Part shown: positions 5,045-24,332 of the stretch, one piece after another
Layout: every line of letters begins with the position of its first letter
How positions within the stretch are numbered: position 1 is the first letter of the stretch
From: Dehalococcoidales bacterium
GTDB lineage: Bacteria; Chloroflexota; Dehalococcoidia; Dehalococcoidales; UBA5760
Direction: 5' to 3'
Assembly (NCBI GenBank): GCA_021161775.1
Contig: JAGGZY010000016.1
Span: 1-55,191, forward strand
Length of the DNA: 55,191 bases
The notes under the pieces: model-generated
Told to the model about the DNA's origin: nothing
The model's input: only the letters and a program-made list of their open reading frames with translations
Database searches by the model: none
Made by a program: the position numbers and the translations under genes

Positions 5045-5097
5045 ACCTACACTAACTCTAGGGATTGTCCAGTGTCTTTAGGGATAAATCGTCTCTT

Positions 5098-8713: not shown

Positions 8714-10300
8714 ATGAAAAAGATTGTCATTATAGTTTTATCGGTATTAGTGTTGGGTAGTCTGCTTGTTACTGGCTGTCCGTCACCAGCTCCTGCCCCG
8801 GCGCCACCGGGGAAGGAGCTCAACCTGTATGGCATTGACCCGCTGACCCTGGACCCGGCAGTCTCCGGCGAGATGACCTCTCACGGGTATGTAATGGAGC
8901 TTTTTAGCGGATTGGTTCGCCTTGATGATAATCTTGAGCCGGTGCCAGATATTGCCCAGAGCTGGCAGCTTAGCGATGATGGCCGGACATATACCTTCCA
9001 TCTGCGGCGGGGGGTGAAGTTTCACGATGGCCGACCGGTTACTGCTGCCGATATTAAGTATTCCTGGGAGCGGGCGTGTCGTCCAGAGACTGCCTCTCAA
9101 ACGGCGGCTAGCTATCTGAATGATATCGTCGGGGCAGAGGAGGTCCTGGCTGGTAGGGCGACTGAGCTTAGCGGGGCCAGGGTTATTGATGACTACACCT
9201 TGGAGGTAACTATCGATGCCCCTCGGTCCTATTTTTTGGCTAAGCTGAGCTATCCCACCGCCTTTGTGGTCGACCGAAATAATGTTGCTTCAGGGAAGGA
9301 TTGGTGGCATCAACCTAACGGCACCGGCCCATTCAGGCTCAAGCAGTGGCAGAAAAATAGCTTGCTGGTTTTGGAGAAGAATGAGCTTTACTATGGCCAG
9401 ATTCCTAAGGTGGATACGGTGGTTTTTCACTTGTATGCCGGGGTGCCGATAAATATGTATGAGACAAGTAAAATTGATACTGCTAGCGTCGCCGTTAGCT
9501 ATATTGATAAGGTTAGTGATAAGTCTGGTCCTTTTTATCAGGATTTAAAGGTCTTCCCTGAGCTGAGCCTGTCCTATATCGGGTTTAATACTACCCGCCC
9601 CCCATTTGATGATGCCAATCTGCGGCGTGCCTTCGCTCTGGCTATCGATAAGGAGAAACTGGTCTCGCTGGTCTTTAGGGATATGGCACAACCGGCTAGA
9701 GGTATCCTGCCGCCAGCTATGCCGGGCTATAATGAAAATCTAATTGGATTGGGGTATGACCCTGAGTTGGCTAAGGAGCTGATAGCTAACTCAAGCTATG
9801 ATGATGTGGCTAATCTGCCGCCGATTACCATCACTACCTTAGGACAGGGGGGGCTAATCTCTGGTTCCCTTGAGGCGATTATCGGGGAGTGGCGGCAGAA
9901 TCTGGGGGTAGAGGTGAAGGTGAGGCAGTTGGAGGAGGCGCGGTTTATGTATCACCTGGAAGAGGAAGTCGACGAGATGTTCTTTAGTGGCTGGGTGGCT
10001 GATTACCCCCATCCTCAGGATTTTCTGGGGCTGTTGTTCCACAGCGGCGCCGAGTATAACTATGGTGGTTATAGTAATACTGAGGTAGATAGCCTGCTGG
10101 ACAGGGCAGGTGTAGAACTGGAGCGCCAGGCGAGTCTAGCCTTATATCGGCAGGCGGAGCAAAAGCTGGTGAGCGATGCCGCTAGTATCCCGTTGTGGTT
10201 CGGCAAGAATTATGTTCTGGTCAAGCCCTATGTTAGCGGTTATGAGTTAAATCCCCTGGGGATAGCAATGCTGAACCGGGTATCGATCAAGCCCCACTAA
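8714..10300 (+). CDS. ABC transporter substrate-binding lipoprotein, family 5 (peptide/nickel type)
   Basis: Lipobox LLVTGC, then the typical SBP_bac_5 layout (LDPA..., LVRLDDNLEPVPDIAQSW, HDGRPVTAADIKYSWER). No permease or ATPase genes are adjacent. Confidence 0.85.
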   Translation: MKKIVIIVLSVLVLGSLLVTGCPSPAPAPAPPGKELNLYGIDPLTLDPAVSGEMTSHGYVMELFSGLVRLDDNLEPVPDIAQSWQLSDDGRTYTFHLRRGVKFHDGRPVTAADIKYSWERACRPETASQTAASYLNDIVGAEEVLAGRATELSGARVIDDYTLEVTIDAPRSYFLAKLSYPTAFVVDRNNVASGKDWWHQPNGTGPFRLKQWQKNSLLVLEKNELYYGQIPKVDTVVFHLYAGVPINMYETSKIDTASVAVSYIDKVSDKSGPFYQDLKVFPELSLSYIGFNTTRPPFDDANLRRAFALAIDKEKLVSLVFRDMAQPARGILPPAMPGYNENLIGLGYDPELAKELIANSSYDDVANLPPITITTLGQGGLISGSLEAIIGEWRQNLGVEVKVRQLEEARFMYHLEEEVDEMFFSGWVADYPHPQDFLGLLFHSGAEYNYGGYSNTEVDSLLDRAGVELERQASLALYRQAEQKLVSDAASIPLWFGKNYVLVKPYVSGYELNPLGIAMLNRVSIKPH

Positions 10301-10391
10301 TGGCGGAGGGGGTGGGATTCGAACCCACGGTTCCCAAAACGAGAACAACGGTTTTCAAGACCGTCACCATAGACCACTCGGACACCCCTCC
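10301..10391 (-). tRNA. tRNA-Ser (anticodon UGA), class II with a long variable arm, CCA encoded
   Basis: Minus-strand sequence: GGAGGGGTGTCCGAGTGGTCTATGGTGACGGTCTTGAAAACCGTTGTTCTCGTTTTGGGAACCGTGGGTTCGAATCCCACCCCCTCCGCCA. The acceptor stem is GGAGGGG/CCCCTCC and the anticodon stem is ACGGT/ACCGT with loop CTTGAAA. The T-loop is GGTTCGAATCC. Confidence 0.9.
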
Positions 10392-10424
10392 TGAAGCTAA
10401 ATTTTGCGACCTACTAGATATAAC

Positions 10425-10844
10425 TCACAAAATTGGCGTTAATTTGGCGTTATTTTTTTGAGATGCCTCGTTCACCCCTGCCGGTAGTACCTCATCCAGT
10501 AACGCTATGGCATCCTCTTGCATCCCCTCGATTATATGGCTGTAGACGTCCATTGTAAAGGCTACCGAGGTGTGACCCGGGGCTTCACTGATAACCTTTG
10601 GTTTGGCTCCCCTTAGTAACATAAGGCTGGCAAAGGTATGCCTTAAATCGTGAAAGCGGACATTCTCCAAGCCAGCTTCTTTAACTATTCTGGCGAAGTT
10701 ATGAGTAAGCACGCTTGGGTCAAGCGGTTTGCCTTCAAGATTAGCAAAAACAAGTCTCTCTGCCCGGTAGTCTCTAAGGAACAGGGCTAACTTTGGTGTC
10801 ATGGCGATACGGCGCTGATTGTTTTCGCTCTGCCATATACTCAT
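10425..10844 (-). pseudogene. Tyrosine recombinase/phage integrase, C-terminal catalytic fragment only
   Basis: The fragment carries HDLRHTFASLMLL...GHTSVAFTMDVYSH (the H-x-x-R and terminal Y region). It lacks the N-terminal SAM-like domain and the first catalytic Arg. No intact continuation could be read upstream (10845-11180). Confidence 0.8.
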
Positions 10845-11178
10845 TAATCATACGTTTAAATCTCTGGCTACCAAGTCGCCTATCGATAAATTGAAGGAAT
10901 CATTTTCATCCAGTAGCCTTCTATGTCCTTTCCTACTTCTTTCGCTCTCCACTCTCCACAACATGGGTATGAGCTCCTGTGCTAAGTGGACCTGAACCTC
11001 TTTTTCTACCGTGGGTATCTCCCCCCTTAATATCTTTCATAAGCTCAGCGGTGAGTGCCATTCGGTCCAAATTCCCTTCCCACTTTTGCATAGTTCTTAT
11101 AGTAGGAGGCTTGATGTTAAGGAGAAACTTAATATCATCTCTGATTGCTTTCTATACCTTACGCTTTTCCAAAAGTTG

Positions 11179-11500
11179 GACAAGATAAAGCAAGCATTGG
11201 GTAGTGATAAGGTTTTTGATGTGATAGGTGAGGTCTTGGGCGATAAGAACCTATCTCAGCTTATGGTGGAAGCAGTCGCCAATGCTAGGAGGATTGATGA
11301 AATCCTGAAGGAACTTGATATCACTGTAGATGAGGAATATATTGCCAAAGTTAAGGACAACATGGCAGAGAGCCTGGCTACCCGCTACATTGATTATACC
11401 CGTATAAAGGAAATGGCACAGCAAGCTAAAGAGCACCGACTTATCCCTGAGTACACAGAGGAATTCTTTAAGAGGGCTGTTAGCATTCAGCGGCACAAGG
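11179..11500 (+). pseudogene. Gene fragment, apparently the C-terminal piece of a larger protein, embedded in the composite track ORF 11011..11673
   Basis: Only the middle of the track ORF looks protein-like (KIKQALGSDKVFDVIGEVLGDKNLSQLMVEAV...RLIPEYTEEFFKRAV). The 5' part overlaps integrase debris and the 3' part overlaps the GT2 gene. The family is unassigned; a helicase-associated C-terminal region is only a guess. Confidence 0.3.
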
Positions 11501-11592
11501 TGTCATATGAGACCTTAATCTTCGGAACCGAGGGGCGTGGGTTCGAGTTTTACCTCTCGCTCCACAAAGCTGGGTGGCTATATCTCGTAAAC

Positions 11593-13206
11593 CTAGTCTG
11601 CTGTCCAATCCCTAAAAATGTGCGCGTCGGGATATCCACGAAATGGGCGGTTAAAGTAGAATACCATCGCTAACAGAGAGCCGTTATAAATAGCCCAGCA
11701 AGCATTTACTACCATAGCTAGGTCTAGAGTAGCTGTGAGCCTGTAGATTGCCACTGAGGTTGCTATCAGGCTAATCGCCAGTAAGCATAACTGCGGAGAC
11801 AAGTATCTCCAAGGGATTCTACCACCGGCGCCCTTTGGAGTTACCCCAAAGGTGTGTTTCTTTCCAACTGTAGCCGCTACAGCAGCTCTCATCAGCGGGT
11901 AGAATGTAATGAAGGCTAACGATTGAGCCAGGAAAAGATCTCGTACCCGGTACCCGCGTTTCTTCATGCTCAGATAGAAGCTACCTAGTGAAACGGCGAA
12001 GTATGGCACAAAGGCGGCAGTGTAGATAAGCGGGTCAGTAACGAGGGGGCGGAGACCGAAGATGATGAAAACTATAGGGCTAATGATAAAAATGAAATTG
12101 GACCAACCAATGAAATAGTAAGACCCTGAAAGGAAGTATTCCCACCACTGCCCGATGCTTAGCGCTCTCGGGTGGAGTAATAGTTTTTTAACAATCCCCC
12201 TAAATGTTCCTATGGTTCCTGTAGCCCAGCGCATTTGCTGGGTGAAATAACCAGCCAGTGTCTCTGGGGCTAAACCATACGCACAAACCTTGTTGTAATA
12301 CAGCGATTGCCAGCGCTTATAGTGCAGTCGCACACTAGTAGCAAAATCCTCAGTAATCGAGGTTTCATCAAAGCCACCGATGCTGTGCAGTGCTTCAGTA
12401 CGAAAAACTACATTGGTACCACAACAGAACGTAGCGCTGCTGGTACTCTTGCCCTCGCAAATATACTCGTAGAATACAGACTGCTGGTGAAAAGCGCCAA
12501 GAGCCACCGGACTGTACTGCGCTTTCTCATAAAATTGAGGGGTCTGAACAAAAGCCAGCCTTGTATTCTCTTCAAGTAACGGAATAATCTCCTTGAGAAA
12601 ACCACTGACTGGTTTCTGATCGGCATCAAAGACAGCAGCATACTTTTCTTTAAGATTCCTTAACAGGTCGTTAATGGCCCCTGCCTTGTAGCCCCGCCGG
12701 TTAACGCGATGGACATAGATACATTTATATCGTTGAGCCAACATCTCTGCTGCTTTCTGCAACTCCTGTTTTGTAGAGTCATCCAGCAAGTATACCCTTT
12801 TGTTGGTGTACTCAAGGTTGGTGACTGACGCGATGGTATCCTCTAACATAATGGGGTCCTCGTTGAAACTGGCTATAATTACAGCAACCGATGGCTCGCA
12901 GGATAGCGCAAAAACATGAGTCTGGGTTAGCCTATACTTCTTGGTGGCTCTAATAGTACTTAGAAAGTAACCCACAGCATGGATTAGAATAAAAGATTCG
13001 GCGCCAAGGAGTAGAATGGCGAAGATTCGGTCTCCTAGCCTGTAGCCAGGATTGAAGAGAGCGGCACCTCGAAAAATAGCGTATATGCAAAGCAGGGTAA
13101 GCCCAACCAGCACCAAAACATAGAGAGTGGTGGAGGTTCCACCCCTCCAGGTGGAATCAACCCCTCCCTCATTCTCATCATCCGCCATCTTGAAGATTCT
13201 GCTCAT
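11593..13206 (-). CDS. Processive family-2 glycosyltransferase, cellulose-synthase-like (multi-pass membrane, no PilZ domain seen)
   Basis: The D,D,D,QxxRW signature is complete: YLLDDSTK, AVFDADQKP, SITEDFATS, QQMRWATG. Hydrophobic segments flank it at the N- and C-termini. Confidence 0.85.
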   Translation of the reverse strand: MSRIFKMADDENEGGVDSTWRGGTSTTLYVLVLVGLTLLCIYAIFRGAALFNPGYRLGDRIFAILLLGAESFILIHAVGYFLSTIRATKKYRLTQTHVFALSCEPSVAVIIASFNEDPIMLEDTIASVTNLEYTNKRVYLLDDSTKQELQKAAEMLAQRYKCIYVHRVNRRGYKAGAINDLLRNLKEKYAAVFDADQKPVSGFLKEIIPLLEENTRLAFVQTPQFYEKAQYSPVALGAFHQQSVFYEYICEGKSTSSATFCCGTNVVFRTEALHSIGGFDETSITEDFATSVRLHYKRWQSLYYNKVCAYGLAPETLAGYFTQQMRWATGTIGTFRGIVKKLLLHPRALSIGQWWEYFLSGSYYFIGWSNFIFIISPIVFIIFGLRPLVTDPLIYTAAFVPYFAVSLGSFYLSMKKRGYRVRDLFLAQSLAFITFYPLMRAAVAATVGKKHTFGVTPKGAGGRIPWRYLSPQLCLLAISLIATSVAIYRLTATLDLAMVVNACWAIYNGSLLAMVFYFNRPFRGYPDAHIFRDWTAD

Positions 13207-13255
13207 TTTCCCTTATCATGTGGGTATCTTCATTGCGGTTTTGCGTAAGGTGCCC

Positions 13256-13627
13256 TCAGCGTTGATGTTTCTGAAGTAGCTCTTCTATCTGAGCAACCAA
13301 TCCTTTTGGCGAAAACGGTTTGATAATGTAAGCATCGGCGCCTATTTTAAGTCCCTTGGCTACTTCATAAGCTTGGCCCTTAGCCGAAAGAAAAACGATT
13401 AGAATCCCTTTTGTTGCTTCCGCCTCTCTCAGCTTACGGCAGGCTTCATATCCACTCATAACAGGCATCATAGCATCCAGGAGAATAAGTTCAGGTAATT
13501 CCTGATGAGCTAGGGCCACTGCTTCAGCTCCATTGGTAGCTTCTATTACTTCAAATCCTCGCCGTTCGAAGGTAAAGCGCACCAGGTTTCGGACATCTTT
13601 CTCGTCATCGGCAATTAGAATCTTCAG
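13256..13627 (-). CDS. Single-domain response regulator (receiver); no canonical start codon in the assembled frame
   Basis: The track ORF (13256..13582, GTG) starts inside the domain. The same frame continues upstream as DEKLKILIADDEKDVRNLVRFTF..., which is the normal REC N-terminus with the acidic pair. The only candidate start is CTG at 13627. The phospho-acceptor context LILLDAMMP is intact. Confidence 0.75.
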   Translation of the reverse strand: MKILIADDEKDVRNLVRFTFERRGFEVIEATNGAEAVALAHQELPELILLDAMMPVMSGYEACRKLREAEATKGILIVFLSAKGQAYEVAKGLKIGADAYIIKPFSPKGLVAQIEELLQKHQR

Positions 13628-16600
13628 CTTTTCATCCCCCCCCCGAGTAGCTTCTGGATTTCCCCAACGAGGTAGTCTAAAGAGAACGGCTTGGTGACAA
13701 ACTGGCTAGCGCCCAAAGTCAAAACCCTTTTCCGACTCTCTTCTACCTTGTATTCTCCACCGCTCATTACTATGACAGGGATGTCACAAGTCTCCTTATT
13801 CATCTTCAGGGTTTGTAGTATCCCATAGCCGTTTACCTCGGGCATCCTGATGTTAAGCAAGATCAATGCCGGGCGCTTCTTGGATGACTGAGCCACAGTA
13901 GTAGCTCCGTCAGAGCATAAGATAGTCTCATAGCCCTTTTGCCTCAGGATGTCACCTAATAATTGGAGCATTTCAGGGTCGTCATCAGCTATAAGTATCT
14001 TCTTCTTGACACTCTTAGTCATAATCCTGCGGACATAGTCTAATAAACGATCTCTATCAATCGGTTTGGTGAAATATTCCACGGCTCCCAGACGGATAGC
14101 CATATTTCTATCCTGGACTATGGTAAGCATCAGCACCGGGATAGATGCAGTATCTGGTTCAGCTTTAAGGCGCTCAAGCACAGTAAACCCATCTATGTCC
14201 GGTAGAAGGACGTCAAGAGTAATTAGATCGGGGCATTCCTGCCTGGCCTTATCTAGAGCCTCTTGCCCGCTAGTAGCCACAATTGTTTGGTAGCCGCTCT
14301 TTTCCAGATAGACTCTCACGAGCTGAGCCGTATCTGGCTCATCCTCTACTACTAATATCTTGCCCCTTGTGCCAAGCGAGCCCTCGGGGTGAGTTCTCGG
14401 GCCTTCGACAGGAGCCACTGCTGGCAAGGTGAAACTGAAGGTACTACCCTTACCGAGCTTGCTCTTCACCCACATCTTGCCCCCATGCATCTCCACGATG
14501 GATTTAGTAATGGCCAGGCCCAGTCCTGTGCCACCCGCCTCCTGTGTAACCGAGCTATCAACACGGAAGAACTTGGTGAAAAGCCTCTGCTGGTCCTGAG
14601 CGGAGATGCCGATGCCACTGTCAGTTACATTGACCTGTACTTGACCGTCAGTCCTTTTGGCAGAAACGTTAATCTTCCCACCTGCTGGGGTGAACTTGTA
14701 GGCGTTGCTTAGCAGATTGGTTAGTATTTGAGTGATACGAGCCTGGTCTCCTTTTACTTTTAGGGGTCCCTGTGGAAGAACAAGTTCCAAGTTTATCTTT
14801 TTGTCATCAATCTGTTTGCGCAGAGAGGTTGCTACCTCCCTGATGACCTGGTCTAGCGGCATAACAGTGGGCTTGAGCTGAATCTTACCCGATTCAATAC
14901 GAGAAATATCAAGGAGGTCATTAATCAGGGCAATAAGGCGGTCAGTATTGCTTTGAACGATACTCAGAAATCCCCGCTGTGTTTCGTTGATTTCACCGGC
15001 TTCGCCGTCGACCACGAGGTCAACATAACCTTTGATAGAGGTAAGTGGGGTTCTCAGCTCATGCGAGACCATGGAAACAAACTCAGTTTTCATCTGGTCA
15101 ACCTTGGCTAACTCCGTGATGTCACGGGTAGCACATACCGTGCCCAGACGCTGACCATCCTCGGTTTTTATTAGCGTGACATTGATACTGAGAATTTTAT
15201 CGCCCACCTTTCGTATGAGGGGTGCTGGAACTTCGCCAGACGCCTCCTTCTTTGCTAACTGGTCGATATCTTCCTTCTTAATTGGCAGGCAGTCATCAGC
15301 ATCTTTGCCCAGAATATCTTCTATCTTCAGATTGAGTAGTCGTTGCATAGCGGGGTTCACAAGCGTGATGCGGTTTTCAGCATCCCTCACTACTATGCCC
15401 TCCGCCATACTGCATAGGATAGTCTGTAACTGGTTTCTATCTTTGCGGATGCTCTCATATAGCTCGGCATTTTCGATAGCAATGCCAATCCCACTCTCAA
15501 TTGAGGTAAGCAAGTCAACGACCCGAGCAGTAAATTGTCGTTGGCTGTGGGTTCCCAGGACCAGTACACCAAATATTTTGGCTTTTGACTTAAGGGGTAT
15601 GGCAACAAACGACCTCAGACCTTCCTCTGTTAATGCCATTCTAATCGACTTTGACTGGCTAGAGATATCTCTTATGATGATTGGTTTCCCTAGCTGGGCT
15701 ACCTTAGAAATATCTCCCATGACGGTTGGTTTCCCTGACTGAACTACCTTCACTGGAAGTGATTCCCCAACCTTGATATCAGCTATCTTTTTCACGAACT
15801 TTTCTGACATTCCTCGATGAACAGCGACCTTCAAATTCTTGGTCTCCTTATTTATCAAAAGTATGCTGCCCACTTCTACCCCCAGTACCTCCAGCACCTT
15901 ATCTAGGGTATCGTTTAGGATCTCGTCTAGATTAAGTGACTGCCCCATGGTAACAGCAATGGCATTGAGAGCAGCAAGCTCAGTATTGCGCCAACGTATG
16001 CTTTCCTCCGCCTGCTTACGCTCGGTGATATCCTCTAATATCCCGTCAAAGTATAGAATCTCACCCTTCTCATTCCTGACTGCTACCTTGGTGTCCGAGA
16101 CCACTATCTCGCAGCCATCCTTTCTTCTGAACCGAATCTCCTGGGTTGTCTTGCCCTGGGTTAGGGCTATTTTCTGAAGGGTGGCTTCTCTTTCTTCGGG
16201 ATGCGTATACAGCTCGGATACCGCCATCTGGAGTAACTCTTCCCGAGAGTAGCCGGTAATCGCTTCCATAGCCGGGTTTACCTCAATGAACCTCCCTTGG
16301 GGACCCGGGGTTGACCTGAGGATACCCAACTTGATGTTGTTTACCAGACTCCGAAATTTTTTCTCGCTCTCTTTTAATGCTGTCTCCATCTGCTGGCGCT
16401 CGGTGATGTCAGTAAAAATGGCTAATTCTGCCGGCTGCCCTTTATACTGGGTCCGGGTAGCTCTGACCTCGAAACAACGCTCCTCGCCATTTGCTATATA
16501 CACGAATACATAATATGCTCCTACAGCTTCGCCGCGCGCCCTCTTGGTAAAATTCTCCTTGAGGATGCTTTTGGATTTCTCGAGAAGGAATTCAATTTCA

Positions 16601-16779
16601 AAGAAGCGTTTGCCAATAAACTGGTCTCTTGACATACCGGATGTTTTAAGGAATAAAGCATTCATATCGAGCAGGGTGCCATCTGCACCCAATATAACTG
16701 CGGGGATAGGTAGTGTCTGGAACAAACCGTCCGTCTCTGATTCTCTAGCTTCCTCTCTCATGTTCAATACCTCCGCCAT
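13624..16779 (-). CDS. Hybrid sensor histidine kinase (PAS-PAS-GAF-PAS-HisKA-HATPase-REC-REC), cytoplasmic
   Basis: H-box FVSMVSHELRTPLTSIKGY and G2 box GGTGLGLAITKSIVEMHGG are present. There are two C-terminal receivers: ILVVEDEPD...LITLDVLLP and ILIADDDPE...LILLNIRMP. The N-terminal PAS/GAF repeats each end with DITERK/DITERQ-type motifs. Confidence 0.9.
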   Translation of the reverse strand: MAEVLNMREEARESETDGLFQTLPIPAVILGADGTLLDMNALFLKTSGMSRDQFIGKRFFEIEFLLEKSKSILKENFTKRARGEAVGAYYVFVYIANGEERCFEVRATRTQYKGQPAELAIFTDITERQQMETALKESEKKFRSLVNNIKLGILRSTPGPQGRFIEVNPAMEAITGYSREELLQMAVSELYTHPEEREATLQKIALTQGKTTQEIRFRRKDGCEIVVSDTKVAVRNEKGEILYFDGILEDITERKQAEESIRWRNTELAALNAIAVTMGQSLNLDEILNDTLDKVLEVLGVEVGSILLINKETKNLKVAVHRGMSEKFVKKIADIKVGESLPVKVVQSGKPTVMGDISKVAQLGKPIIIRDISSQSKSIRMALTEEGLRSFVAIPLKSKAKIFGVLVLGTHSQRQFTARVVDLLTSIESGIGIAIENAELYESIRKDRNQLQTILCSMAEGIVVRDAENRITLVNPAMQRLLNLKIEDILGKDADDCLPIKKEDIDQLAKKEASGEVPAPLIRKVGDKILSINVTLIKTEDGQRLGTVCATRDITELAKVDQMKTEFVSMVSHELRTPLTSIKGYVDLVVDGEAGEINETQRGFLSIVQSNTDRLIALINDLLDISRIESGKIQLKPTVMPLDQVIREVATSLRKQIDDKKINLELVLPQGPLKVKGDQARITQILTNLLSNAYKFTPAGGKINVSAKRTDGQVQVNVTDSGIGISAQDQQRLFTKFFRVDSSVTQEAGGTGLGLAITKSIVEMHGGKMWVKSKLGKGSTFSFTLPAVAPVEGPRTHPEGSLGTRGKILVVEDEPDTAQLVRVYLEKSGYQTIVATSGQEALDKARQECPDLITLDVLLPDIDGFTVLERLKAEPDTASIPVLMLTIVQDRNMAIRLGAVEYFTKPIDRDRLLDYVRRIMTKSVKKKILIADDDPEMLQLLGDILRQKGYETILCSDGATTVAQSSKKRPALILLNIRMPEVNGYGILQTLKMNKETCDIPVIVMSGGEYKVEESRKRVLTLGASQFVTKPFSLDYLVGEIQKLLGGGMKS

Positions 16780-16812
16780 TAGCTTATCAATCTATATCAA
16801 TTTAACCGAAGT

Positions 16813-17514
16813 TTAAAACGGCCTCTCACCGGGAATAACTGTAATTCCCTTTTTACCAATACGCAAACGGTGGATGCCCATATCGTGATTGGTACCTCGC
16901 ATTTTTGCTATCTGAATGGCTCGGTAGGTAGGTGTTACATACAGGACAATGACGCCATGACTTACAAATTGCTCAATCCCGTAGCGTGTGGTTTTGGCTT
17001 CTCCTTCAACCATCTCGGTCAAGAGCAAGGTGGTGCAACCCAACTCCCTCAGCATGGCTCCTATCCGTAGTACATCACGACGCAACGCAACTACATCATG
17101 ATACGGCAGTCCCAGAGAGGCTATAGAGTCGAAAACGATACGCTTGGCATTAATCTTTACCGCCTGCTGGTGAATGTTGTCCAGCAAGCCGTTAATGTCG
17201 ACCCTCTCTTGGCTGACTTCAAATGGAATCGGTGACTGGACTATAGCCAGCTTCCCCTGTCCTATCAGTTGCTCCAACTCCCAGCCATAGCGACTCATAT
17301 CCCGGAGGATGTCAGTAGCCTCCTCCTCTAGGGTTACCAGAAGCCCGTTCTCTCTAAAGCTGGCACTACCGTTATACAGAAACTGCATACCCAGGGTGGT
17401 CTTCCCTGACCCTGCCGCTCCGGTTACCAGTGTGACACGCCCGTTTAGTAATCCACCCTCAATAAGCTCATCCAGTCCGGACACTCCTGTGGGTACTCGC
17501 TCTATGTCTACCAT
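16813..17514 (-). CDS. KaiC/RecA-like single-domain ATPase (COG0467-type)
   Basis: The N-terminus reads RVPTGVSGLDELIEGGLLNGRVTLVTGAAGSGKTTLGMQFL (Walker A). Walker B is RIVFDSIASL. The 233-aa size is typical of stand-alone KaiC-like domains. Confidence 0.8.
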   Translation of the reverse strand: MVDIERVPTGVSGLDELIEGGLLNGRVTLVTGAAGSGKTTLGMQFLYNGSASFRENGLLVTLEEEATDILRDMSRYGWELEQLIGQGKLAIVQSPIPFEVSQERVDINGLLDNIHQQAVKINAKRIVFDSIASLGLPYHDVVALRRDVLRIGAMLRELGCTTLLLTEMVEGEAKTTRYGIEQFVSHGVIVLYVTPTYRAIQIAKMRGTNHDMGIHRLRIGKKGITVIPGERPF

Positions 17515-17530
17515 CTTAGCCTCCCGAGGT

Positions 17531-17824
17531 CTATTTGCGTTTAGTATCTTTGCTGGTCCACAGCTTGGGGAGATTAGGGTCTTTAAAGCGCAGGCTAAAC
17601 AGCTTAGGCGTTTCCCCTCGTCTGATTACCAAATCCTCCTGCTGTAGTCGATAGAGGACAGCATGTACCCGAGAATAGGGTATCTCGGTTTGGGCACTGA
17701 TTACCTTGGCAGAAGATTCACCTATCTCGTTTAGTAGTTTATAAACCTTTACCTCATCCTCGCCCAAGTCCAAAAGTTCTGGATACCTCTCGATAAAGGA
17801 CATTACCTTCTTCTCCCTTCCCAA
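17531..17824 (-). CDS. Small winged-helix transcriptional regulator, TrmB-like HTH
   Basis: LDLGEDEVKVYKLLNEIGESSAKVISAQTEIPYSRVHAVLYRLQQEDLVIRR matches the TrmB N-terminal wHTH pattern as I recall it (L.L..E..vY..L...g..ta.eia....ip.srvy.vL..L....lv). Confidence 0.65.
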   Translation of the reverse strand: MGREKKVMSFIERYPELLDLGEDEVKVYKLLNEIGESSAKVISAQTEIPYSRVHAVLYRLQQEDLVIRRGETPKLFSLRFKDPNLPKLWTSKDTKRK

Positions 17825-17854
17825 ACTAATTAAGCTGAATAACCAATTCCTCTT

Positions 17855-19102
17855 CTACTCTAGCATTGCTTTCTTAATCAGTCTTAACTCATCCCTGACC
17901 AGCCTGGTTATCAAGAATTCCCTCTGCACTCGCTCTTTACCCTTAGCCCCTAGCTCTCTAGCCAAAGCCCTATTCTGTAACAGCGTCACTATCCTCTCGG
18001 TACACTCTTCTACGCTGCCAACTAGAAGCTCGGCAAGCTCACCACCCATTTGCCGGGGAATACCTCCCACTTTGCCACCAACTACGGGTGTGGATTTCCA
18101 CAATGCCTCGGATACAGTTAAGCCAAAGCCTTCCCGTAACGATTTTTGAATTATTATGTTGCTAGCTCGTTGAAATACATTTATCTCAATATCACTCAGG
18201 TTGTAAAATACGAAGAGGTCAGGGTCATCTTCAGCCACCGCCTCCACTTTTTCAAGTAATTGTGTTCCCTCCGGGTCATCGCTGGCTAGAGAGCCTATTA
18301 GGGCTAATTGCAAACCTTGAATCTCCTTCTTTGCCATCCGATAGGCCTCAATTACCCCAAAGGGGTCCTTCCACGGGTCAAATCGAGATACCTGGACTGC
18401 CAGCGGGCGGTTAGCATCAATCCCCATGTCAGGGAGAAAATCTACGCACTGCCGTACTGGAAGCCCCCGATTCTTAGGGCTGGTGGGGTCAATAGCTGGC
18501 ACTATTGCTTCCACCCAGGGTATCCGCAAATTAGCCGGAACATATTGTTCCAGGGTAAAGACAGCACCATCGTACTCCTCCACATAGGGTTTAAGGAACT
18601 GCCATACATCCTGATTAGGATTAGAGGTATCTATATGGCACCGCCATATCCACTTAGTTTGCTGGCTATTAGAGAAGTGACGAAGTGCAGCTGGTTGAGG
18701 GTCATTTACAATAATAATATCATAGTTAGAATCAAGGTGCCGTGCATTCTCAGAGTTACACTTAATATAGGCCTCCTTCTCCTCAGCACTAAGCCAATAT
18801 TCAGCACCCTGGAGAGCATTGTGGAAGTTCTTGGTAACCTTAAAGAACGGTTCGTTACCGCTAATGATACGCCAATCAGCCGTAATTCCAGCATCATTCA
18901 GCAGAGGAATGCAAGAATAAAGTAATTCGGCTACTCCTCCTCCGTAGGGGGTTGAGTTGATATGACACAAGCGAATACCCCTGAGTTCTGCCCCCAGTGC
19001 CATGATTTCATCAATAATTTGGTCTTCGGTTAAGACCATGGGACGATAGTTAGCCAAGTTCTTTTCACCTACGGTTATCTTCTCCAGCATTTGTTTCCCC
19101 AA
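17855..19102 (-). CDS. treT: Trehalose synthase, TreT-type GT4 glycosyltransferase
   Basis: A long run of motifs matches my recollection of archaeal TreT: HINSTPYGGGVAELL, FFKVTKNFHNALQG, NDPQPAAL, WIWRCHIDTS, QVSRFDPWKDP, DDPEG, NVFQRASNIIIQKSLREGFGLTVSEALWK. The assignment is by recall, not by search. Confidence 0.8.
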   Translation of the reverse strand: MGKQMLEKITVGEKNLANYRPMVLTEDQIIDEIMALGAELRGIRLCHINSTPYGGGVAELLYSCIPLLNDAGITADWRIISGNEPFFKVTKNFHNALQGAEYWLSAEEKEAYIKCNSENARHLDSNYDIIIVNDPQPAALRHFSNSQQTKWIWRCHIDTSNPNQDVWQFLKPYVEEYDGAVFTLEQYVPANLRIPWVEAIVPAIDPTSPKNRGLPVRQCVDFLPDMGIDANRPLAVQVSRFDPWKDPFGVIEAYRMAKKEIQGLQLALIGSLASDDPEGTQLLEKVEAVAEDDPDLFVFYNLSDIEINVFQRASNIIIQKSLREGFGLTVSEALWKSTPVVGGKVGGIPRQMGGELAELLVGSVEECTERIVTLLQNRALARELGAKGKERVQREFLITRLVRDELRLIKKAMLE

Positions 19103-19122
19103 TCACCCCTTTCGGGAATATA

Positions 19123-20253
19123 CTAAGGCTTAGACTGTTCTCCCAATTTTAACCACTCTCTAGAAAACTTGGACCACTTCATGTTAGCGACACGAGCGTA
19201 GTAATCAGTGTTGTCCATCCTGAGTTGAATCAATCCGTCCATCACATATTTCATATTGTTCAGCGTTTGTTCTGATATCGCACCCTCTTCCACAACATAG
19301 AGAGTAGCCACGCCTCCATAGCTAGTAGCGGTGCGGGTAAGTTGAGCTATAAGACGCTGGACCAGGGCTAGCTCGAAGTTGGTGAACAGGCTGGTAATCG
19401 AATCTAAAATACGTCTACCACCAGCTTTACCACCTACTGATTGTCCCAGTTCCATCCCGGCGTCACTAATAAGACCAGCCAATTGGTTCAGTTCCAAGAG
19501 ACCGCTTACAGCAAAACGCTCCGTACCCCTGACATTGCCCCGACTCCAACCATACCCATCTACTAAGCAGAAATTACCTTCCCCCTCGTATTCGCTAACC
19601 GGTTTTGGCAGCATCATATCAAGGCTACGCCGAATCATAGTCGGTGCGTCGTCCAGAGTGATAACCATACAACACTCTGAAGCCTTAAGTCCTGTAGCTA
19701 GAAAACGACGGCAGAGGGAACTTTTACCAGAACCAGTCTCACCAACAACCAGTATATTTGAACCCTGTGGCAAACCACCACCCAGTGCCTCATCTAATTG
19801 GCTATCACCACAACTTATTCTATCAACTACTCCCTTTGGTTCAGGTGATGGAGACGGCTCGGCGGCTAGTTTACCATGCATGGCTCGTGACCTGACTAAT
19901 AGAGCAGCGACTCTGGCACGTAGTACAGATGGACTGAAGGGCTTGGTCAAATAATCATCAATGCCTTCCTGAAAGGCTTTGAGTTCATCCTGCTCCTCGG
20001 AGAGCGCGGTTAACATTATGATGGGTACCGATGCCGTAGTACGGTTACTACGCAGGTCATGGGCTAGCTCATAGCCACTCTTTATCGGCATCATAACATC
20101 GGTAATAATGAGAGCGGGCTTTTTATCTAGCGCCATCCCAAAGCCTTGCTCTCCATTAATTGCCTCCAGGACTTCATATCCCGCACTGCTGAGGAGTGTC
20201 TTTAGAAGATGCCGAGTGGATTCATCATCATCTACAATGAGGATCCTATCCAT
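19123..20253 (-). CDS. Response-regulator receiver fused to a KaiC/RecA-like ATPase domain
   Basis: The N-terminal REC reads ILIVDDDESTRHLL...PALIITDVMMP...K. A linker follows, then GDSQLDEALGGGLPQGSNILVVGETGSGKSSLCRRF (Walker A) and RRILDSITSL (Walker B). Confidence 0.8.
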   Translation of the reverse strand: MDRILIVDDDESTRHLLKTLLSSAGYEVLEAINGEQGFGMALDKKPALIITDVMMPIKSGYELAHDLRSNRTTASVPIIMLTALSEEQDELKAFQEGIDDYLTKPFSPSVLRARVAALLVRSRAMHGKLAAEPSPSPEPKGVVDRISCGDSQLDEALGGGLPQGSNILVVGETGSGKSSLCRRFLATGLKASECCMVITLDDAPTMIRRSLDMMLPKPVSEYEGEGNFCLVDGYGWSRGNVRGTERFAVSGLLELNQLAGLISDAGMELGQSVGGKAGGRRILDSITSLFTNFELALVQRLIAQLTRTATSYGGVATLYVVEEGAISEQTLNNMKYVMDGLIQLRMDNTDYYARVANMKWSKFSREWLKLGEQSKP

Positions 20254-20254
20254 G

Positions 20255-20968
20255 TCAGACTGTCTCCCTGATTACAATACCTCGCTTAGGTAGAATCTCA
20301 AAGACATGGTCATTCAAATCAGTCGGAGTCCCCCGCATCTTAGGTATGTAGAGGGTCCGAACACGATGAGCCTGTATACTGCTTACCCCCAAAACGATAA
20401 TACCAGAGACGACGAACTCCTCGACTCCATATTGGCAAAGTCTAGTCGTTCCTGAAGGAATCGCTGAGGTAATAACGGTGGTGCAGTGTAGATTATCCTC
20501 AATAGAGAAAATAAGGCTTCTGATATATTCCTTTACCTGAGCGGTTGCTTCCTGGCTAAAAATAAGGGGCGCAATAGGGTCAATGACCACCGTCTGAGCG
20601 TTAATTTGCCGCACATGTTTAGTAAGGTCAGTGACTATTGAGCGTACATCAATAACCTTCTCTTTACCCATACGCACATTAGTGAAGTAGGGTGTCGCAT
20701 CCAGAAGGGTTATCCTTTTGTCATCGACATATTTTTTCAGGTCCCAGCCGAGAGATTCGGCATCCTCCAGCAAGTGACTAGGCTTCTCATCGATAGAGAT
20801 ATAAACGCTATTTTCTCCACGAGCTACTCCAGCCAGGACATATTGCAGACAGAGGATAGTTTTCCCCGTTCCGGCTTGACCGCTGACTAGAAAGACCTTG
20901 TCTTCCGCTAAGCCCCCACTTAGGAGACTATCAAGTCCATCGACGCCGGTTGCAATTCTACGACGCAT
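20255..20968 (-). CDS. KaiC/RecA-like single-domain ATPase (COG0467-type)
   Basis: The N-terminus reads IATGVDGLDSLLSGGLAEDKVFLVSGQAGTGKTILCLQY (Walker A). Walker B is TVVIDPIAPL. Its stop is 1 nt from the start of the next gene (TGACATG). Confidence 0.8.
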   Translation of the reverse strand: MRRRIATGVDGLDSLLSGGLAEDKVFLVSGQAGTGKTILCLQYVLAGVARGENSVYISIDEKPSHLLEDAESLGWDLKKYVDDKRITLLDATPYFTNVRMGKEKVIDVRSIVTDLTKHVRQINAQTVVIDPIAPLIFSQEATAQVKEYIRSLIFSIEDNLHCTTVITSAIPSGTTRLCQYGVEEFVVSGIIVLGVSSIQAHRVRTLYIPKMRGTPTDLNDHVFEILPKRGIVIRETV

Positions 20969-21026
20969 CTCCGCCTACATCTCTAGTCAATTGTAGCCCT
21001 CACGTTGACACAAGTCATTAGTGTGT

Positions 21027-21055
21027 ATTCTAAGAAGGTGAATTCTCTTTGTCAA
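21027..21055 (-). promoter_or_regulatory. Sigma-70-like promoter (TTGACA-N17-TAGAAT) for the KaiC-like operon
   Basis: On the minus strand, TTGACA lies at 21055-21050 and TAGAAT at 21032-21027 with a 17-nt spacer. It sits about 60 nt upstream of the first KaiC-like start (20968). Confidence 0.45.
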
Positions 21056-21184
21056 CCCCCTAGCAATTCGGTTGATTGAAGTGCTAGAGTCCCGGTCTAG
21101 GCGCGCTTAATCTTTCCCTGATAGCAATCACCGCCCAGCTTGATCTTGATATATAATATCTTACCAGTGATGAGGGATAATTAA

Positions 21185-21478
21185 TTGGCCAAACCGAAAC
21201 CCAATCGTAAACCCAAGATTATGGCTGGTATTCCGGCATACAATCAGGAGAACGATGTAGGTGAGGTAATTCGCAAAGCCTCAGAGTATGTTGACGAGGT
21301 TATCGTTGCTGATGACGGCTCAGTGGATAATACTGCTCGGGTAGCTGAAGCTGCCGGGGCAATAGTGCTTTGGTGGAAATATCAGAGTGGTGACCGGAAT
21401 GCTTTAGCAACGTTACTGCAATATAATAGAGAGGATGTAGTAAATTTGAAGGCATTGAGGGAGAGGCTAGCGTATTAA
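21185..21478 (+). pseudogene. Chimeric remnant: GT2 N-terminal fragment fused to the C-terminal tail of an RNase-H-like (YprB-type) protein
   Basis: Residues 12-61 (IMAGIPAYNQENDVGEVIRKASEYVDEVIVADDGSVDNTARVAEAAGAIV) form a GT2 Rossmann N-terminus that stops abruptly. The tail (DRNALATLLQYNREDVVNLKALRERL) resembles the end of YprB-like exonuclease domains. The second assignment is from recall. Confidence 0.5.
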
Positions 21479-21626
21479 ATTAAGCTAAGGAACAAAGGAG
21501 AAAGAGTAGTGGAAATGCAAGGCAGCTTTAATTTTAATGAGGGAGTACTAGCTGAGGCGTTAAGGCAACAAGTGACTGCTAAAATAGAGAGGCGCCCCGA
21601 GACACCCCCATGTTTTACAGTGATTT

Positions 21627-22208
21627 TTAAGTGTTTTGGAAACCGCCTAAGGGCAGCCAATTCCCATTACCAAATTCCCACATTTCGATAAGTTTATGAG
21701 CTTCATTTTCCCAATCTTTTGGATGAGGGACTAACGCGACATATACATGACCCGGGCAACTCTTGGCCGCAGGTTTAAGAACTTCGAGGTAGCTTTGAAT
21801 GTCACTAACCAGTGGTCCAATGAATAACTTGTTCGGAGCACTCCCAATAACAAGTTTATTAAAGTCAATTAGTGCCTATCTTGTATCCAGCGCAAATTCA
21901 GACTCCACCTGCCAGATAGCTTTCCGGATGTAACAGAGTTCCTTTCCTTGTTTGGCGGACGTTACTTTTCCAACTCTACATACAAGGATATCATAGAGAT
22001 ATTCATTGAGACCAAAATCCCTCTTATTCTTATCGTAATCTTTAGAAAATACTCGAATGTCTGGATTAATCTTGCCCGGCCAAGCTTCGTAGTATCTCCT
22101 GAGCTGGTCAGCGAGGCTCTCTACCCAGTGTCGAACTCTATCTTGATGGACTACCTGTGTAGACGCAACTACATCACGTTCTGCCTGAGCGTTTTTAAAA
22201 CTTACCAT
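21627..22208 (-). pseudogene. Hypothetical ~193-codon gene interrupted by one in-frame TAG
   Basis: The track ORF 21876..22208 ends ...ESEFALDTR-TAG. The same frame continues without further stops as ALIDFNKLVIGSAPNKLFIGPLVSDIQSYLEVLKPAAKSCPGHVYVALVPHPKDWENEAHKLIEMWEFGNGNWLPLGGFQNT-TAA (stop 21627-21629). No family was recognised. Confidence 0.45.
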
Positions 22209-22382
22209 GATTTCTCAAGGTCTTTGCCTAAGAATCCTTTAACCATACTACTGTCCCTTTTCAGATTTGCTTTCCAGTCAGCACTTTGCATGGTAGCCCC
22301 TCCTTAGTAGAGACATTCCTTTCAAGCCCATGCTTTCCCTCAGTTTTCTTTTCAGTTTTCAGTTTGTTTTGAGCAGGGCAGT

Positions 22383-23030
22383 TTAGTTGGTTACCTTTCT
22401 CAAAATATCTTCAACTTTTGACCGAATCATATGCTCAGGGACGGCGCCGAGGATTTCGTCAACCTTCCGACCGTTGCTAAAGAACATCTGCATGGGTATG
22501 CTCATAATCTGATATTTTGTTGCTGTCTGCTGGTTTTCATCCACATTAATCATGCAGAATTTAAATCTGCCCTCATACTCCTCGGAGAGTTTTTCGTATA
22601 TCGGTATAACCATCCTGCACGGACCACACCAAGGGGCCCAGAAATCGACTTCTGTGGGAAGGTCTGACCTTAGAACCTCCTCCTCAAAATTCTGATCCGT
22701 GATTTGTACTATCTTGCCGACTTTAGTTTCCTTACTGATTTTAGTTTCTGGAGCGACCCTTGACATAGTGAACCCTGAGCCTTGGGGCGTTTCTTGGTAA
22801 TCCATAAGCATTCCCTCTAGCTCTGGGGCCATATCAGTCCCTATAAGCAATAGCTTTGCACTGTCTCCGGCTTCCACTACCTGGTCTCCCGTCTTCTCTT
22901 TGTCCAAGACAAATTGTAATTGGCTCGGGTTTGAAGGGGAACGAATAATCCTAATTGCCATTTGGTGGTCTATTTGCTGCTGCAAAGCTTCTTTAAGCTT
23001 TTCCTTCGCATTTGCGGTCACTGTTAACAA
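22383..23030 (-). CDS. Fusion protein: HesB/IscA-like N-terminal domain + thioredoxin
   Basis: The N-terminal ~95 aa (MLTVTANAKEKLKEAL...IRIIRSP...FVLDKEK...) has the HesB/IscA fold pattern but lacks the C-terminal Cys motif. The C-terminal half is a canonical thioredoxin with WAPWCGPC. Confidence 0.8.
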   Translation of the reverse strand: MLTVTANAKEKLKEALQQQIDHQMAIRIIRSPSNPSQLQFVLDKEKTGDQVVEAGDSAKLLLIGTDMAPELEGMLMDYQETPQGSGFTMSRVAPETKISKETKVGKIVQITDQNFEEEVLRSDLPTEVDFWAPWCGPCRMVIPIYEKLSEEYEGRFKFCMINVDENQQTATKYQIMSIPMQMFFSNGRKVDEILGAVPEHMIRSKVEDILRKVTN

Positions 23031-23115
23031 TATTCTCTCCTCCTTACATATTTCTCTCTTTTACTTTACCGTTCTCTATAAATCCCTAGCATACTTATCG
23101 GTAACTTTGTTAGAG

Positions 23116-23442
23116 TTACAAACCCTTCCAGCTCTCTTGCTCCATAGCTAAGAAGGCTAGTCGCTCTTCTTGATTCATCTCCGCTATCCTGACTTCAACC
23201 TTCGCACCCAATTTCGCTACTGCCTGGCGCAGACTGTCCACAAGATAGCCCTTGATTGAAGTGGGGATGCCAAGCAAGGGAAGAACGAGAGTAAGGGACA
23301 CCTCATTATTCTTTACAGCTACATCTTTAAGCATCCCCAGCTCAGCAAGGGTGCGGCTGATTTCTGGGGGCATCACCTGTCCTATTGCTTGATGCAAATC
23401 TTCCTCTGAGATATCCCTGGCCGTTATACCTCCCCCCTTCAA
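23116..23442 (-). CDS. DUF59/MIP18-family protein (Fe-S assembly SufT-like)
   Basis: The 108-aa ORF carries ...EEDLHQAIGQVMPPEISRTLAELGMLKDVAVKNNEVSLTLVLP..., the typical DUF59 core pattern. Confidence 0.7.
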   Translation of the reverse strand: MKGGGITARDISEEDLHQAIGQVMPPEISRTLAELGMLKDVAVKNNEVSLTLVLPLLGIPTSIKGYLVDSLRQAVAKLGAKVEVRIAEMNQEERLAFLAMEQESWKGL

Positions 23443-23520
23443 TTCTACACTTTAATCCCTCTGCGGCTATCAAATACACTCCAGTTTGCCCTTCAAACCT
23501 GCTTCGTTTTTAGAGTGAGC

Positions 23521-23793
23521 CTATTTAATTACAGCGAGGATATCGCTTCTGGAAACTATCAAGTATTTTTTGCCCTCAAATTCAATCTCGTCACCGGTGA
23601 ATTTAGCAAAGACTATTCTATCCCCCGCCTTTATATTCTCAGCAAGCTCCTCATCAGTCCCTACCTCAATGACCTTGCCCATTCTTGGCTTTTCCTTGGC
23701 GGTGTCGGGGATGATTATCCCTCCTTTAGTTTTGCCTTCTCCAATCTCCTCCGGCTCAACCAGAACTCGGTCCTCAAAAGGCTTTATTTGCAT
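23521..23793 (-). CDS. groES: Co-chaperonin GroES (no groEL adjacent)
   Basis: MQIKPFEDRVLVEPEE...KTKGGIIIPDTAKEKPRMGKVIEVG...GDRIVFAKF is canonical Cpn10. Confidence 0.9.
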   Translation of the reverse strand: MQIKPFEDRVLVEPEEIGEGKTKGGIIIPDTAKEKPRMGKVIEVGTDEELAENIKAGDRIVFAKFTGDEIEFEGKKYLIVSRSDILAVIK

Positions 23794-23809
23794 TTAAACT
23801 TCTCCTTTC

Positions 23810-24061
23810 CTATCTTTTGATTCCTAGTAATTTATCGATCTTTACCTTATCGAAGCCGACGATAGGGTGGCTCCCGATCAAGACAACTGGCACACCCATT
23901 ATATGCCTACGCTGAAGTTCCCTAGCCCCATCCCGATCCTTCTCAACATTCACCTCCCGAAACCTGAAGCCTTTTTCCTTCAGGTACTGCTTAACCCTAC
24001 CGCACCAGGGGCATGAAGAACCAGTAAAAATTATTACTCGTGGTTGATTAGAAGCTGGCAC
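23810..24061 (-). CDS. Glutaredoxin-like protein (NrdH/YruB type, CPWC)
   Basis: The 83-aa ORF reads VIIFTGSSCPWCGRVKQYLKEKGFRFREVNVEKD...GVPVVLIG, a glutaredoxin fold with a CxxC site. Confidence 0.8.
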   Translation of the reverse strand: MPASNQPRVIIFTGSSCPWCGRVKQYLKEKGFRFREVNVEKDRDGARELQRRHIMGVPVVLIGSHPIVGFDKVKIDKLLGIKR

Positions 24062-24278: not shown

Positions 24279-24332
24279 ATTCATCTCCAGATTCACATTC
24301 TAACATCTTGAAAGCGAGGAGTTTTTCCCTGC

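Follow-up and report, generated by a model that had tools for sequence, protein, structure and literature searches.

The window analyzed here, 55,191 nucleotides (nt) of contig JAGGZY010000016.1 from a Dehalococcoidales bacterium (assembly GCA_021161775.1), carries a cluster of eight genes. We interpret it, with moderate confidence, as one version of a conserved module of Chloroflexota (Dehalococcoidia type), in which a two-component sensor and KaiC-like ATPases are predicted to be combined with nucleoside diphosphate (NDP)-hexose enzymes. Our confidence is higher for the bare functional linkage of these genes and lower for each mechanistic step. The best reading of the module is that it probably controls trehalose versus glucan synthesis in response to stress, which is probably osmotic. 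The cluster consists of eight consecutive co-directional open reading frames (ORFs) on the minus strand (20968-11593). In order, these encode a first stand-alone KaiC-like ATPase (KcL1), a receiver-KaiC-like fusion (RK), a TreT-type trehalose synthase, a small TrmB-type winged helix-turn-helix protein (wHTH), a second stand-alone KaiC-like ATPase (KcL2), a histidine kinase (HK), a stand-alone receiver (REC), and a BcsA-like family 2 glycosyltransferase (GT2). The ORF listing and Pfam agree on this composition and Pfam upheld every domain assignment, as described in an initial annotation made from the sequence alone.

Conservation of the gene association

The association was surveyed with an alignment of the RK ATPase domain (A2), which yielded 69 species-level loci (labeled with the prefix L) that were scored by blastp. 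The first survey scans were unusable, as a whole-RK query retrieved generic response regulators and a full-length alignment (A1) produced a generic REC pattern. A genome scan with a wHTH pattern, which was too strict, returned 2 loci only. Full-length RK homologs fall into approximately 75 clusters, mostly from metagenome-assembled genomes (MAGs) of Chloroflexota/Dehalococcoidia, and the parts of the cluster are again found side by side in about 30 related loci. Gene content and gene order are identical in GCA_016783225 (L016/L175), where RK is 76% and GT2 only 59% identical to the window proteins. The full set in the same order is also found in GCA_030605165 (L176), where an extra SpoIIAA/STAS-like gene (4664-5068) lies between KcL2 and the kinase. 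In L176, the KcL1 ortholog (163-1095) additionally has an N-terminal double zinc ribbon (DZR).

In 55 of the 69 loci, among them Margulisiibacteriota, Binatia, "Deltaproteobacteria" MAGs, and Dehalococcoidales, the immediate upstream neighbor of RK is a KaiC-like gene. The gene association noticed in the window is present in other genomes. A kinase follows RK directly in 12 of the 69 loci, and Brocadiia/Planctomycetota MAGs show the order HK-REC-RK. In all the cases read, namely, the window, L016, L020, and L176, KcL1 and RK are 1 nt apart, which suggests translational coupling of the two genes.

Besides the order seen in the window (KcL1-RK-TreT-wHTH-KcL2-HK-REC-GT2), five further arrangements were found within Chloroflexota. 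In L183, the kinase and its receiver precede the first ATPase (HK-REC-KcL1-RK-TreT-wHTH-KcL2-GT2). In L181 and L192-L195, a fusion of a nucleotidylyltransferase and the wHTH takes part ([HK]-KcL1-RK-[nucleotidylyltransferase::wHTH]-KcL2-GT2). A cassette of RK-wHTH-KcL2-[MscS-like-PAS kinase] is present in L017, L018, L105, L107, L173, and L174, where it lies among TreT, TreS-like, GlgE, MalQ, GlgX, Mak-like, and MscS genes. The two remaining arrangements are KcL1-RK-TreT-GT2 (L157) and HTH-RK-HK-REC with no sugar genes (L022).

Across this reshuffling, the neighbors of the wHTH gene were counted in 28 distinct wHTH loci, 27 of which have downstream sequence. The next gene is KcL2 in all 27 of these Chloroflexota-type loci, and the preceding gene is TreT in 11 loci and RK in 7. 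KcL2, in turn, is followed directly by GT2 (9 loci) or by a kinase (8 loci). Trehalose or alpha-glucan genes occur within 10 kb in 10 of the 11 distinct long Chloroflexota loci. The cargo genes in Chloroflexota are always TreT, genes of the TreS/GlgE pathway, a BcsA-like GT2, or the nucleotidylyltransferase fused to the wHTH. Judged by these gene orders, the older core of the module is KcL1 plus RK, often with a histidine kinase, in several bacterial phyla, to which Chloroflexota have added the inseparable pair of wHTH and KcL2. The conserved pairings are KcL1-RK, HK-REC, and wHTH-KcL2, with interchangeable kinase sensors. Since the linkage survives much reshuffling and includes a physical fusion inside the cassette, a functional unit is strongly argued.

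Three consecutive KaiC-like genes are also found in Margulisiibacteriota and relatives (L108, L109, L114, L115, L118, L119, L121, and L122). These trios consist of a weakly KcL1-like protein, RK, and a KcL2-like protein (approximately 200 bits), with no wHTH and no sugar genes. Such loci suggest that the ATPase trio is older than the Chloroflexota cargo.

Organization of the cluster

The coordinates of the eight genes are listed in Table 1. From the first gene to the eighth, the intergenic gaps measure 1, 20, 30, 16, 33, -4, and 49 nt, and purine-rich ribosome-binding sequences precede most of the genes. For the wHTH, ATG 17803 is the most likely start, as in its orthologs, in which case the 30-nt gap after TreT becomes 51 nt. 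The CTG start of the receiver and the TGA stop of the kinase form a CTGA overlap. This start (13627) is supported by the L016 ortholog, which has ATG at exactly the same codon, followed by KILIADDE. The short gaps and the 4-nt kinase-receiver overlap noted initially are thus confirmed, within a range of 1 to 51 nt. Based on the spacing and the conserved order, we infer a single transcript of eight genes.

The promoter-like element TTGACA-N17-TAGAAT upstream of KcL1 is present as first described and tops a scan of positions 10300-22500. It is tied at 11/12 with TTTACA-17-TATAAT (10559-10531), which lies outside the operon. Taken as a class, promoter-like sites show no enrichment in this region (21 found versus 16 +/- 4 expected). 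The first gene also has a similar element upstream of it in L176 (TTGACC-17-TAGAAT) and in L157 (TTTACA-18-TATAAT). A perfect 7-bp inverted repeat, GTTGACA/TGTCAAC (21004-21010 and 21050-21056), brackets the window promoter, taking in the -35 hexamer and a site approximately 15 nt downstream of the -10. A reading of this repeat as an operator was rejected, as the 7-mer pair is not significant (8 matches versus 3.8 expected); neither L176 nor L157 has conserved the repeat. When 10200-22400 was scanned with Rfam, a tRNA was the only match, with no riboswitch or leader.

Table 1. Genes of the cluster and candidate promoter in the window
Feature	Position	Strand	Evidence or remark
Sigma70-like promoter candidate TTGACA-17-TAGAAT	21027..21055	-	Upstream of KcL1; 11/12 consensus matches
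KcL1, stand-alone single-domain KaiC-like ATPase, 237 amino acids (aa)	20255..20968	-	PF06745 E 2.9e-65
RK, receiver plus divergent KaiC-like ATPase domain, 376 aa	19123..20253	-	REC 8e-27; PF06745 1.7e-20
TreT-type trehalose glycosyl-transferring synthase, 415 aa, TTG start	17855..19102	-	TreT_GT1 PF21269 5.5e-56, plus GT1
Mini TrmB-type wHTH, 90 aa (97 aa from TTG 17824)	17531..17803	-	PF01978 8.4e-11
KcL2, stand-alone KaiC CI-like ATPase, 233 aa	16813..17514	-	PF06745 2.6e-62
Hybrid histidine kinase, PAS-PAS-GAF-PAS-HisKA-HATPase-REC-pseudoREC, 1051 aa	13624..16779	-	Pfam: 3 PAS, GAF, HisKA, HATPase_c, 2 REC
Stand-alone receiver, 123 aa, CTG start	13256..13627	-	REC 5e-27
BcsA-like processive GT2 without PilZ, 537 aa	11593..13206	-	PF13641 1e-26

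The cluster could also be a mosaic of two or three independent neighbors, whose spacing would reflect a compact genome and no common regulation. The candidate units (KcL1-RK, TreT, wHTH-KcL2-HK-REC, and GT2) are each found without the others somewhere, RK-wHTH-KcL2-HK occurs without KcL1, and the GT2 family is common elsewhere. Promoter-like and terminator-like matches within the cluster are possible as well. However, the linkage to sugar enzymes is kept through at least five gene orders, a sugar-nucleotide enzyme and the wHTH form one fusion protein within the same cassette, and GT2 repeatedly abuts KcL2. In addition, the short gaps and the CTGA overlap leave scant room for independent promoters. 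We therefore consider a mosaic unlikely and favor a conserved module.

KaiC-like identity of the three ATPases

The KaiC family model PF06745 scores KcL1, KcL2, and RK at 220, 211, and 74 bits, respectively, compared to at most 22 bits for the RecA, Rad51, and DnaB_C models. When KcL1 is compared to the PDB, KaiC structures are matched at an E-value of 4e-46, RecA at 5e-14, and Rad51 paralogs near 1e-4. KcL2 matches the CI domain of KaiC with 174 bits (E 2e-68) and the CII domain with 58 bits. For the ATPase domain of RK, PH0284 is nearest by sequence, and an AlphaFold2 model (mean predicted local distance difference test score, 80.4) has PH0284, KaiC, and PH0186 as its top Foldseek matches in the PDB. 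All three proteins carry a Walker A motif (GQAGTGKT, GETGSGKS, and GAAGSGKT) and the Walker B Asp. KcL1, which has GQAGTGKT, also has the Arg finger, and KcL2 retains the catalytic Glu-Glu pair and the Arg finger.

These matches identify the three ATPases as KaiC-like rather than RadA/Sms- or DnaB-type proteins, as the hidden Markov model searches proposed in the initial annotation were meant to establish. An explanation as repair or recombination ATPases (RadA/Sms, RadB, or DnaB-like) that lie beside metabolic genes by chance is effectively refuted. The weak secondary matches to RecA, Rad51, RadA, and DnaB_C are expected within the RecA superfamily, and the KaiC-family E-values are better by 30 to 50 orders of magnitude. 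The RadA/Sms and RadB models reach 26 to 30 bits against cut-offs of 172 to 403. Moreover, Pfam found no Lon, zinc-finger, or helicase N-terminal domain in the three ATPases, their nearest structures are those named above, and their conserved neighborhood consists of signaling and sugar metabolism genes.

Each of the three proteins has one ATPase domain, with no tandem CI and CII, even in RK, whose length includes the receiver. At the positions equivalent to the KaiC phosphosites S431/T432, KcL1 has Glu-Glu, KcL2 has Glu-Gln, and RK aligns with NN-KY. Pfam detected no KaiB or KaiA gene among the eight, and a tblastn search of the window with a provisional Synechococcus elongatus KaiB query sequence returned only matches with E > 4. 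By these features, none of the three ATPases is predicted to be a clock KaiC. It is also hard to see them as a timer or hourglass that schedules sugar metabolism. The KcL2 match to the CI domain would fit such a role, and hourglass roles have been proposed for KaiC homologs that adjoin kinases (PMC3164672). However, the single-domain build, the replaced phosphosites, the lack of a KaiB-like ORF in the window as judged with the provisional query, and the lack of a CII-type autokinase domain make a timer very improbable.

RK forms, by sequence, a distinct family. In alignment A1, every member keeps receiver residues D52 and K104 as well as the Walker A motif GxxGxGKS. An Asp-Asp pair at the catalytic Glu-Glu site and a Lys at the Arg-finger site are likewise invariant in the family. 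A conserved insertion, ERFAVSGxLELNQLAGxISDAGxELGQ (residues ~232-275), occupies the site of the KaiC CI B-loop; within it, residues 240-252 are modeled with low confidence by AlphaFold2.

The kinase and its receivers

The kinase matches HisKA (1.8e-20), with the H-box SHELRTPL, and HATPase_c (5.6e-33). The acceptor Asp is present in the receiver of RK, in the first receiver of the kinase (REC1), and in the stand-alone REC, and the second kinase receiver (REC2) has Asn at this position. Given the H-box His, the HATPase_c domain, and the receivers with an acceptor Asp, these proteins are predicted to form a two-component system. No hydrophobic segment was found in the kinase, which is therefore placed in the cytoplasm. 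The more specific designation as a phosphorelay is not supported. A Pfam scan confined to the eight proteins matched no Hpt domain (PF01627), and REC2 is a pseudo-receiver.

The sensor part of orthologous kinases differs from locus to locus, with HAMP-PAS in L176 and an MscS-like domain plus PAS in four separately fetched loci (L017, L018, L173, and L174). In L173, an MscS channel gene adjoins the kinase locus as well. The stand-alone REC always accompanies the kinase, also where the kinase sits upstream of the first ATPase (L183), and the HK-REC pair stays together in loci of other phyla (L137, L159, L169, and L022). This co-occurrence marks the receiver as the probable companion of the kinase and not of GT2. 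In the non-Chloroflexota loci L125, L141, L153, L156, and L172, the gene after RK encodes not a kinase but a receiver-containing protein of ~460-500 aa.

The kinase stop codon is preceded, at a distance of 9 nt, by a G9 homopolymer (13636-13644, minus strand). One extra G in this run would fuse the kinase in frame with the receiver, which would become a third C-terminal REC. L016 has no G9 run, and its kinase and receiver are separate, the latter with an ATG start.

The small wHTH and its fusion to a nucleotidylyltransferase

The wHTH has the TrmB winged helix domain (PF01978) and no match to the C-terminal sugar-binding domain (PF11495), which true TrmB matches in the wHTH profile search do carry (P0325). 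Its orthologs measure 83 to 120 aa and share the N terminus MSSFxEKYPELL. Identity across the clade amounts to 58 to 83%, which is more than a simple repressor usually shows.

When the wHTH family was used for an exhaustive profile search, only 13 representative proteins were returned below an E-value of 1e-10, two of which are fusion proteins; a third, weaker match (P0327, E 2.7e-06) is a fusion protein too. In 7 loci, the wHTH is fused to the C terminus of a sugar-1-phosphate nucleotidylyltransferase (NTP_transferase plus LbH), namely, L177 (24-1382), L180 (60-1424), L181 (1417-2793), and L192-L195. The KcL2 ortholog always follows directly after the fusion gene. We know of no description of this nucleotidylyltransferase-wHTH architecture. 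Fusions of the wHTH to KaiC were sought as well, and none were found.

These fusions bear on an alternative in which control is post-translational. The three KaiC-like proteins would form a split hetero-oligomeric machine, with a ring of KcL2 and with KcL1 and RK as a split two-layer analog of KaiC. The wHTH would act as an adaptor that docks TreT, the nucleotidylyltransferase, or GT2 onto the ring, so that the ATP state and receiver phosphorylation would switch the sugar-nucleotide enzymes. In the cyanobacterial clock, the KaiC CI ring, with its B-loop, binds KaiB and SasA. KcL2 is very near this CI domain, and the RK family carries its insertion at the B-loop position. The wHTH itself is fused to an enzyme in the loci listed above, directly follows TreT in 11, and is unusually well conserved. 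However, its domain matches the DNA-binding wHTH of TrmB, with a normal recognition helix and wing. The fusion is also explained by enzyme-transcription-factor fusions ("trigger enzymes"), as known from BirA and PutA. We regard such a machine, in its assembly as well as in its adaptor, as conceivable but doubtful. If true, it would represent a non-circadian, non-transcriptional KaiC "metabolic governor" dividing NDP-glucose between osmolyte and polymer in bacteria.

The sugar enzymes

TreT aligns over its full length with the solved enzymes of Pyrococcus horikoshii (2x6q, E 1e-106) and Thermoproteus tenax (6zj4, E 5e-102). It combines the N-terminal domain PF21269 with PF00534, and the NCBIfam TreT model gives 393 bits, below its equivalog cut-off of 775. 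The profile check proposed initially thus supports the TreT assignment. Based on this architecture and similarity, the protein is a predicted TreT-type (GT4) synthase that forms trehalose from NDP-glucose and glucose.

GT2 shows the motifs LDDS141, DAD194, QTP221, FCCG260, TED285, and QQMRW323, with hydrophobic segments on both sides of the catalytic core (22-83, 363-391, and 468-494). It aligns with the transmembrane and GT core of BcsA (residues ~200-683, E 2e-42) and the alignment ends before the PilZ region; the CelA model gives 241 bits, below its cut-off. Pfam found no PilZ match in GT2 and no BcsB-like gene in the cluster, and the protein is a member of a large PilZ-less family of ~540 aa. 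The description of GT2 as a BcsA-like enzyme with the D,D,D,QxxRW signature and no PilZ is accordingly upheld. In contrast, the idea that the adjacent receiver replaces PilZ/c-di-GMP control of GT2 finds no support. The receiver travels with the kinase, and in the 9 loci where GT2 directly follows KcL2, no REC is nearby. A Rosetta-stone test among the 120 best GT2 homologs found no REC-GT2 fusions.

Proposed mode of action

In the favored reading, that of a conserved stress-responsive module, the kinase would sense stress, namely, membrane tension or osmolarity in the relatives and a cytoplasmic PAS/GAF signal in the window. It would then phosphorylate Asp52 of RK, with the stand-alone REC and REC1 of the kinase as parallel acceptors or phosphate sinks. 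The ATPase domain of phosphorylated RK would assemble with KcL1 in a different way or change its nucleotide state, and the signal would be handed on to the KcL2-wHTH pair. This pair would set either the expression of TreT and GT2, by DNA binding, or their activity directly, by enzyme docking. As a result, NDP-glucose would be split between soluble trehalose and a beta-glucan polymer. A phosphorylation-gated KaiC-like hetero-oligomer, as suggested in the initial annotation, is plausible.

The MscS-type sensors and the adjoining MscS gene point to osmotic stress as the signal in the relatives. Together with the position of the cassette among TreT, TreS, GlgE, GlgX, and MscS genes there, these kinases strengthen the link to stress and compatible solutes. 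Overall, the interpretation first given for the cluster is therefore retained in part. The KaiC-like identity, the recurrence in other genomes, and the stress link are supported, and the phosphorelay and the receiver control of GT2 lack support.

Several observations weigh against this reading. The kinase of the window has no MscS-like domain, and the signal here may not be osmotic but another cytoplasmic cue. KcL1-RK occurs alone in Margulisiibacteriota, RK-HK-REC occurs without any sugar genes, and the PilZ-less GT2 family is widespread without the KaiC-like module. With its Asp-Asp pair and Lys, RK may bind nucleotide without hydrolysis. TreT is reversible in some organisms, and flux through it may run in either direction here. 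The enzyme part of the fusions is a hexose-1-phosphate nucleotidylyltransferase for which glucose-1-phosphate or mannose-1-phosphate is the candidate substrate. Finally, many of the surveyed contigs are short metagenomic fragments, some of which may stem from closely related populations.

Flanking regions

The stretch directly downstream of GT2 holds a tRNA-Ser (10301-10391, minus strand), an ORF for a truncated phage integrase with the C-terminal catalytic part only (10425-10844, minus strand), and a 220-aa ORF without a Pfam match (11011-11673, plus strand). The region 10301-11673 looks like a degraded integrative element. In both L016 and L176, GT2 is followed by secDF, and the 3' flank is therefore not syntenic. 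On the other side, a 97-aa ORF (21185-21478, plus strand) divergent from the operon comprises the N-terminal part of a GT2 domain only, overlaps a weak RNase_H_2 match, and is probably a gene fragment. Further upstream, a redox cluster (22383-25244, minus strand) encodes a thioredoxin with an N-terminal extension of ~100 aa, an FeS-assembly-P protein, and a thioredoxin-reductase-like flavoprotein. It has no evident tie to the operon.

Relation to known systems

KaiC-like ATPases beyond the cyanobacterial clock are abundant and almost uncharacterized. In a full-text literature search, no paper was found on a bacterial REC-KaiC protein, on a tie between KaiC-like proteins and trehalose or cellulose synthases, or on TreT in Dehalococcoidia. 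The module thus appears not to have been functionally described. Its individual parts and the overall concept are known already, which is not so for the architecture, the bacterial distribution, and the defined sugar-metabolic output. The module also hints at a way in which compatible solutes and matrix polysaccharide may be regulated in uncultivated Dehalococcoidia.

For the sugar enzymes, the trehalose/maltose cluster of Thermococcales provides a familiar likeness, since TreT there adjoins TrmB, a member of the same wHTH family. However, the wHTH of the module has 90 aa, lacks the sugar-binding domain, and is paired with a KaiC CI-like ATPase, and there is no ABC transporter. GT2 resembles BcsA in its D, DxD, TED, and QxxRW motifs and in the membrane helices to either side of them, and it is likewise predicted to be processive. 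It differs from BcsA in the lack of PilZ and of a BcsB partner in the cluster, and its neighboring REC belongs to the kinase. The REC-BcsA fusions of Methanobacteriaceae set a precedent for receiver control of such enzymes (PMC5847659).

Among bacteria, kaiC genes adjoin HK and REC genes in many species (PMC3164672). An experimental precedent comes from Pseudomonas, where a KaiC homolog interacts with the kinase and the response regulator that belong to it and confers protection from osmotic and oxidative stress (bioRxiv 10.1101/2022.01.26.477890). The KaiC proteins of these networks have two domains with phosphosites, whereas the module has three single-domain proteins without them. In addition, the module includes a receiver-ATPase fusion, an added wHTH partner, and linked sugar enzymes.

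A further close likeness is to archaeal KaiC-like ATPases, proposed as "signal transduction hubs" (Makarova, Galperin and Koonin 2017, mBio, via PMC5847659), and to the iKaiC-REC fusions of archaeal Methanosarcinaceae (PMC5847659). As far as the account given through PMC5847659 goes, these share with the module single-domain KaiC ATPases tied to receivers, kinases, and wHTH proteins, with several paralogs per locus. The order in the module is REC-KaiC and not KaiC-REC, and its P-loop is intact, whereas iKaiC is called inactivated. On the same account, the module differs from the archaeal hubs in being bacterial (it occurs in Chloroflexota, and its core pair in Margulisiibacteriota, Binatia, and Brocadiia as well) and in having a defined metabolic cargo (TreT, GT2, or NDP-hexose pyrophosphorylase). 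The hub idea leans mainly on archaeal gene neighborhoods without a defined output. The module would add a bacterial case in which the genome reveals all three stages: input (an exchangeable kinase sensor, including MscS-like ones), transducer (the REC-KaiC fusion, two further ATPases, and the wHTH), and output (trehalose synthase, predicted beta-glucan synthase, and NDP-hexose pyrophosphorylase). With it, the hub hypothesis becomes directly testable with a few soluble proteins.

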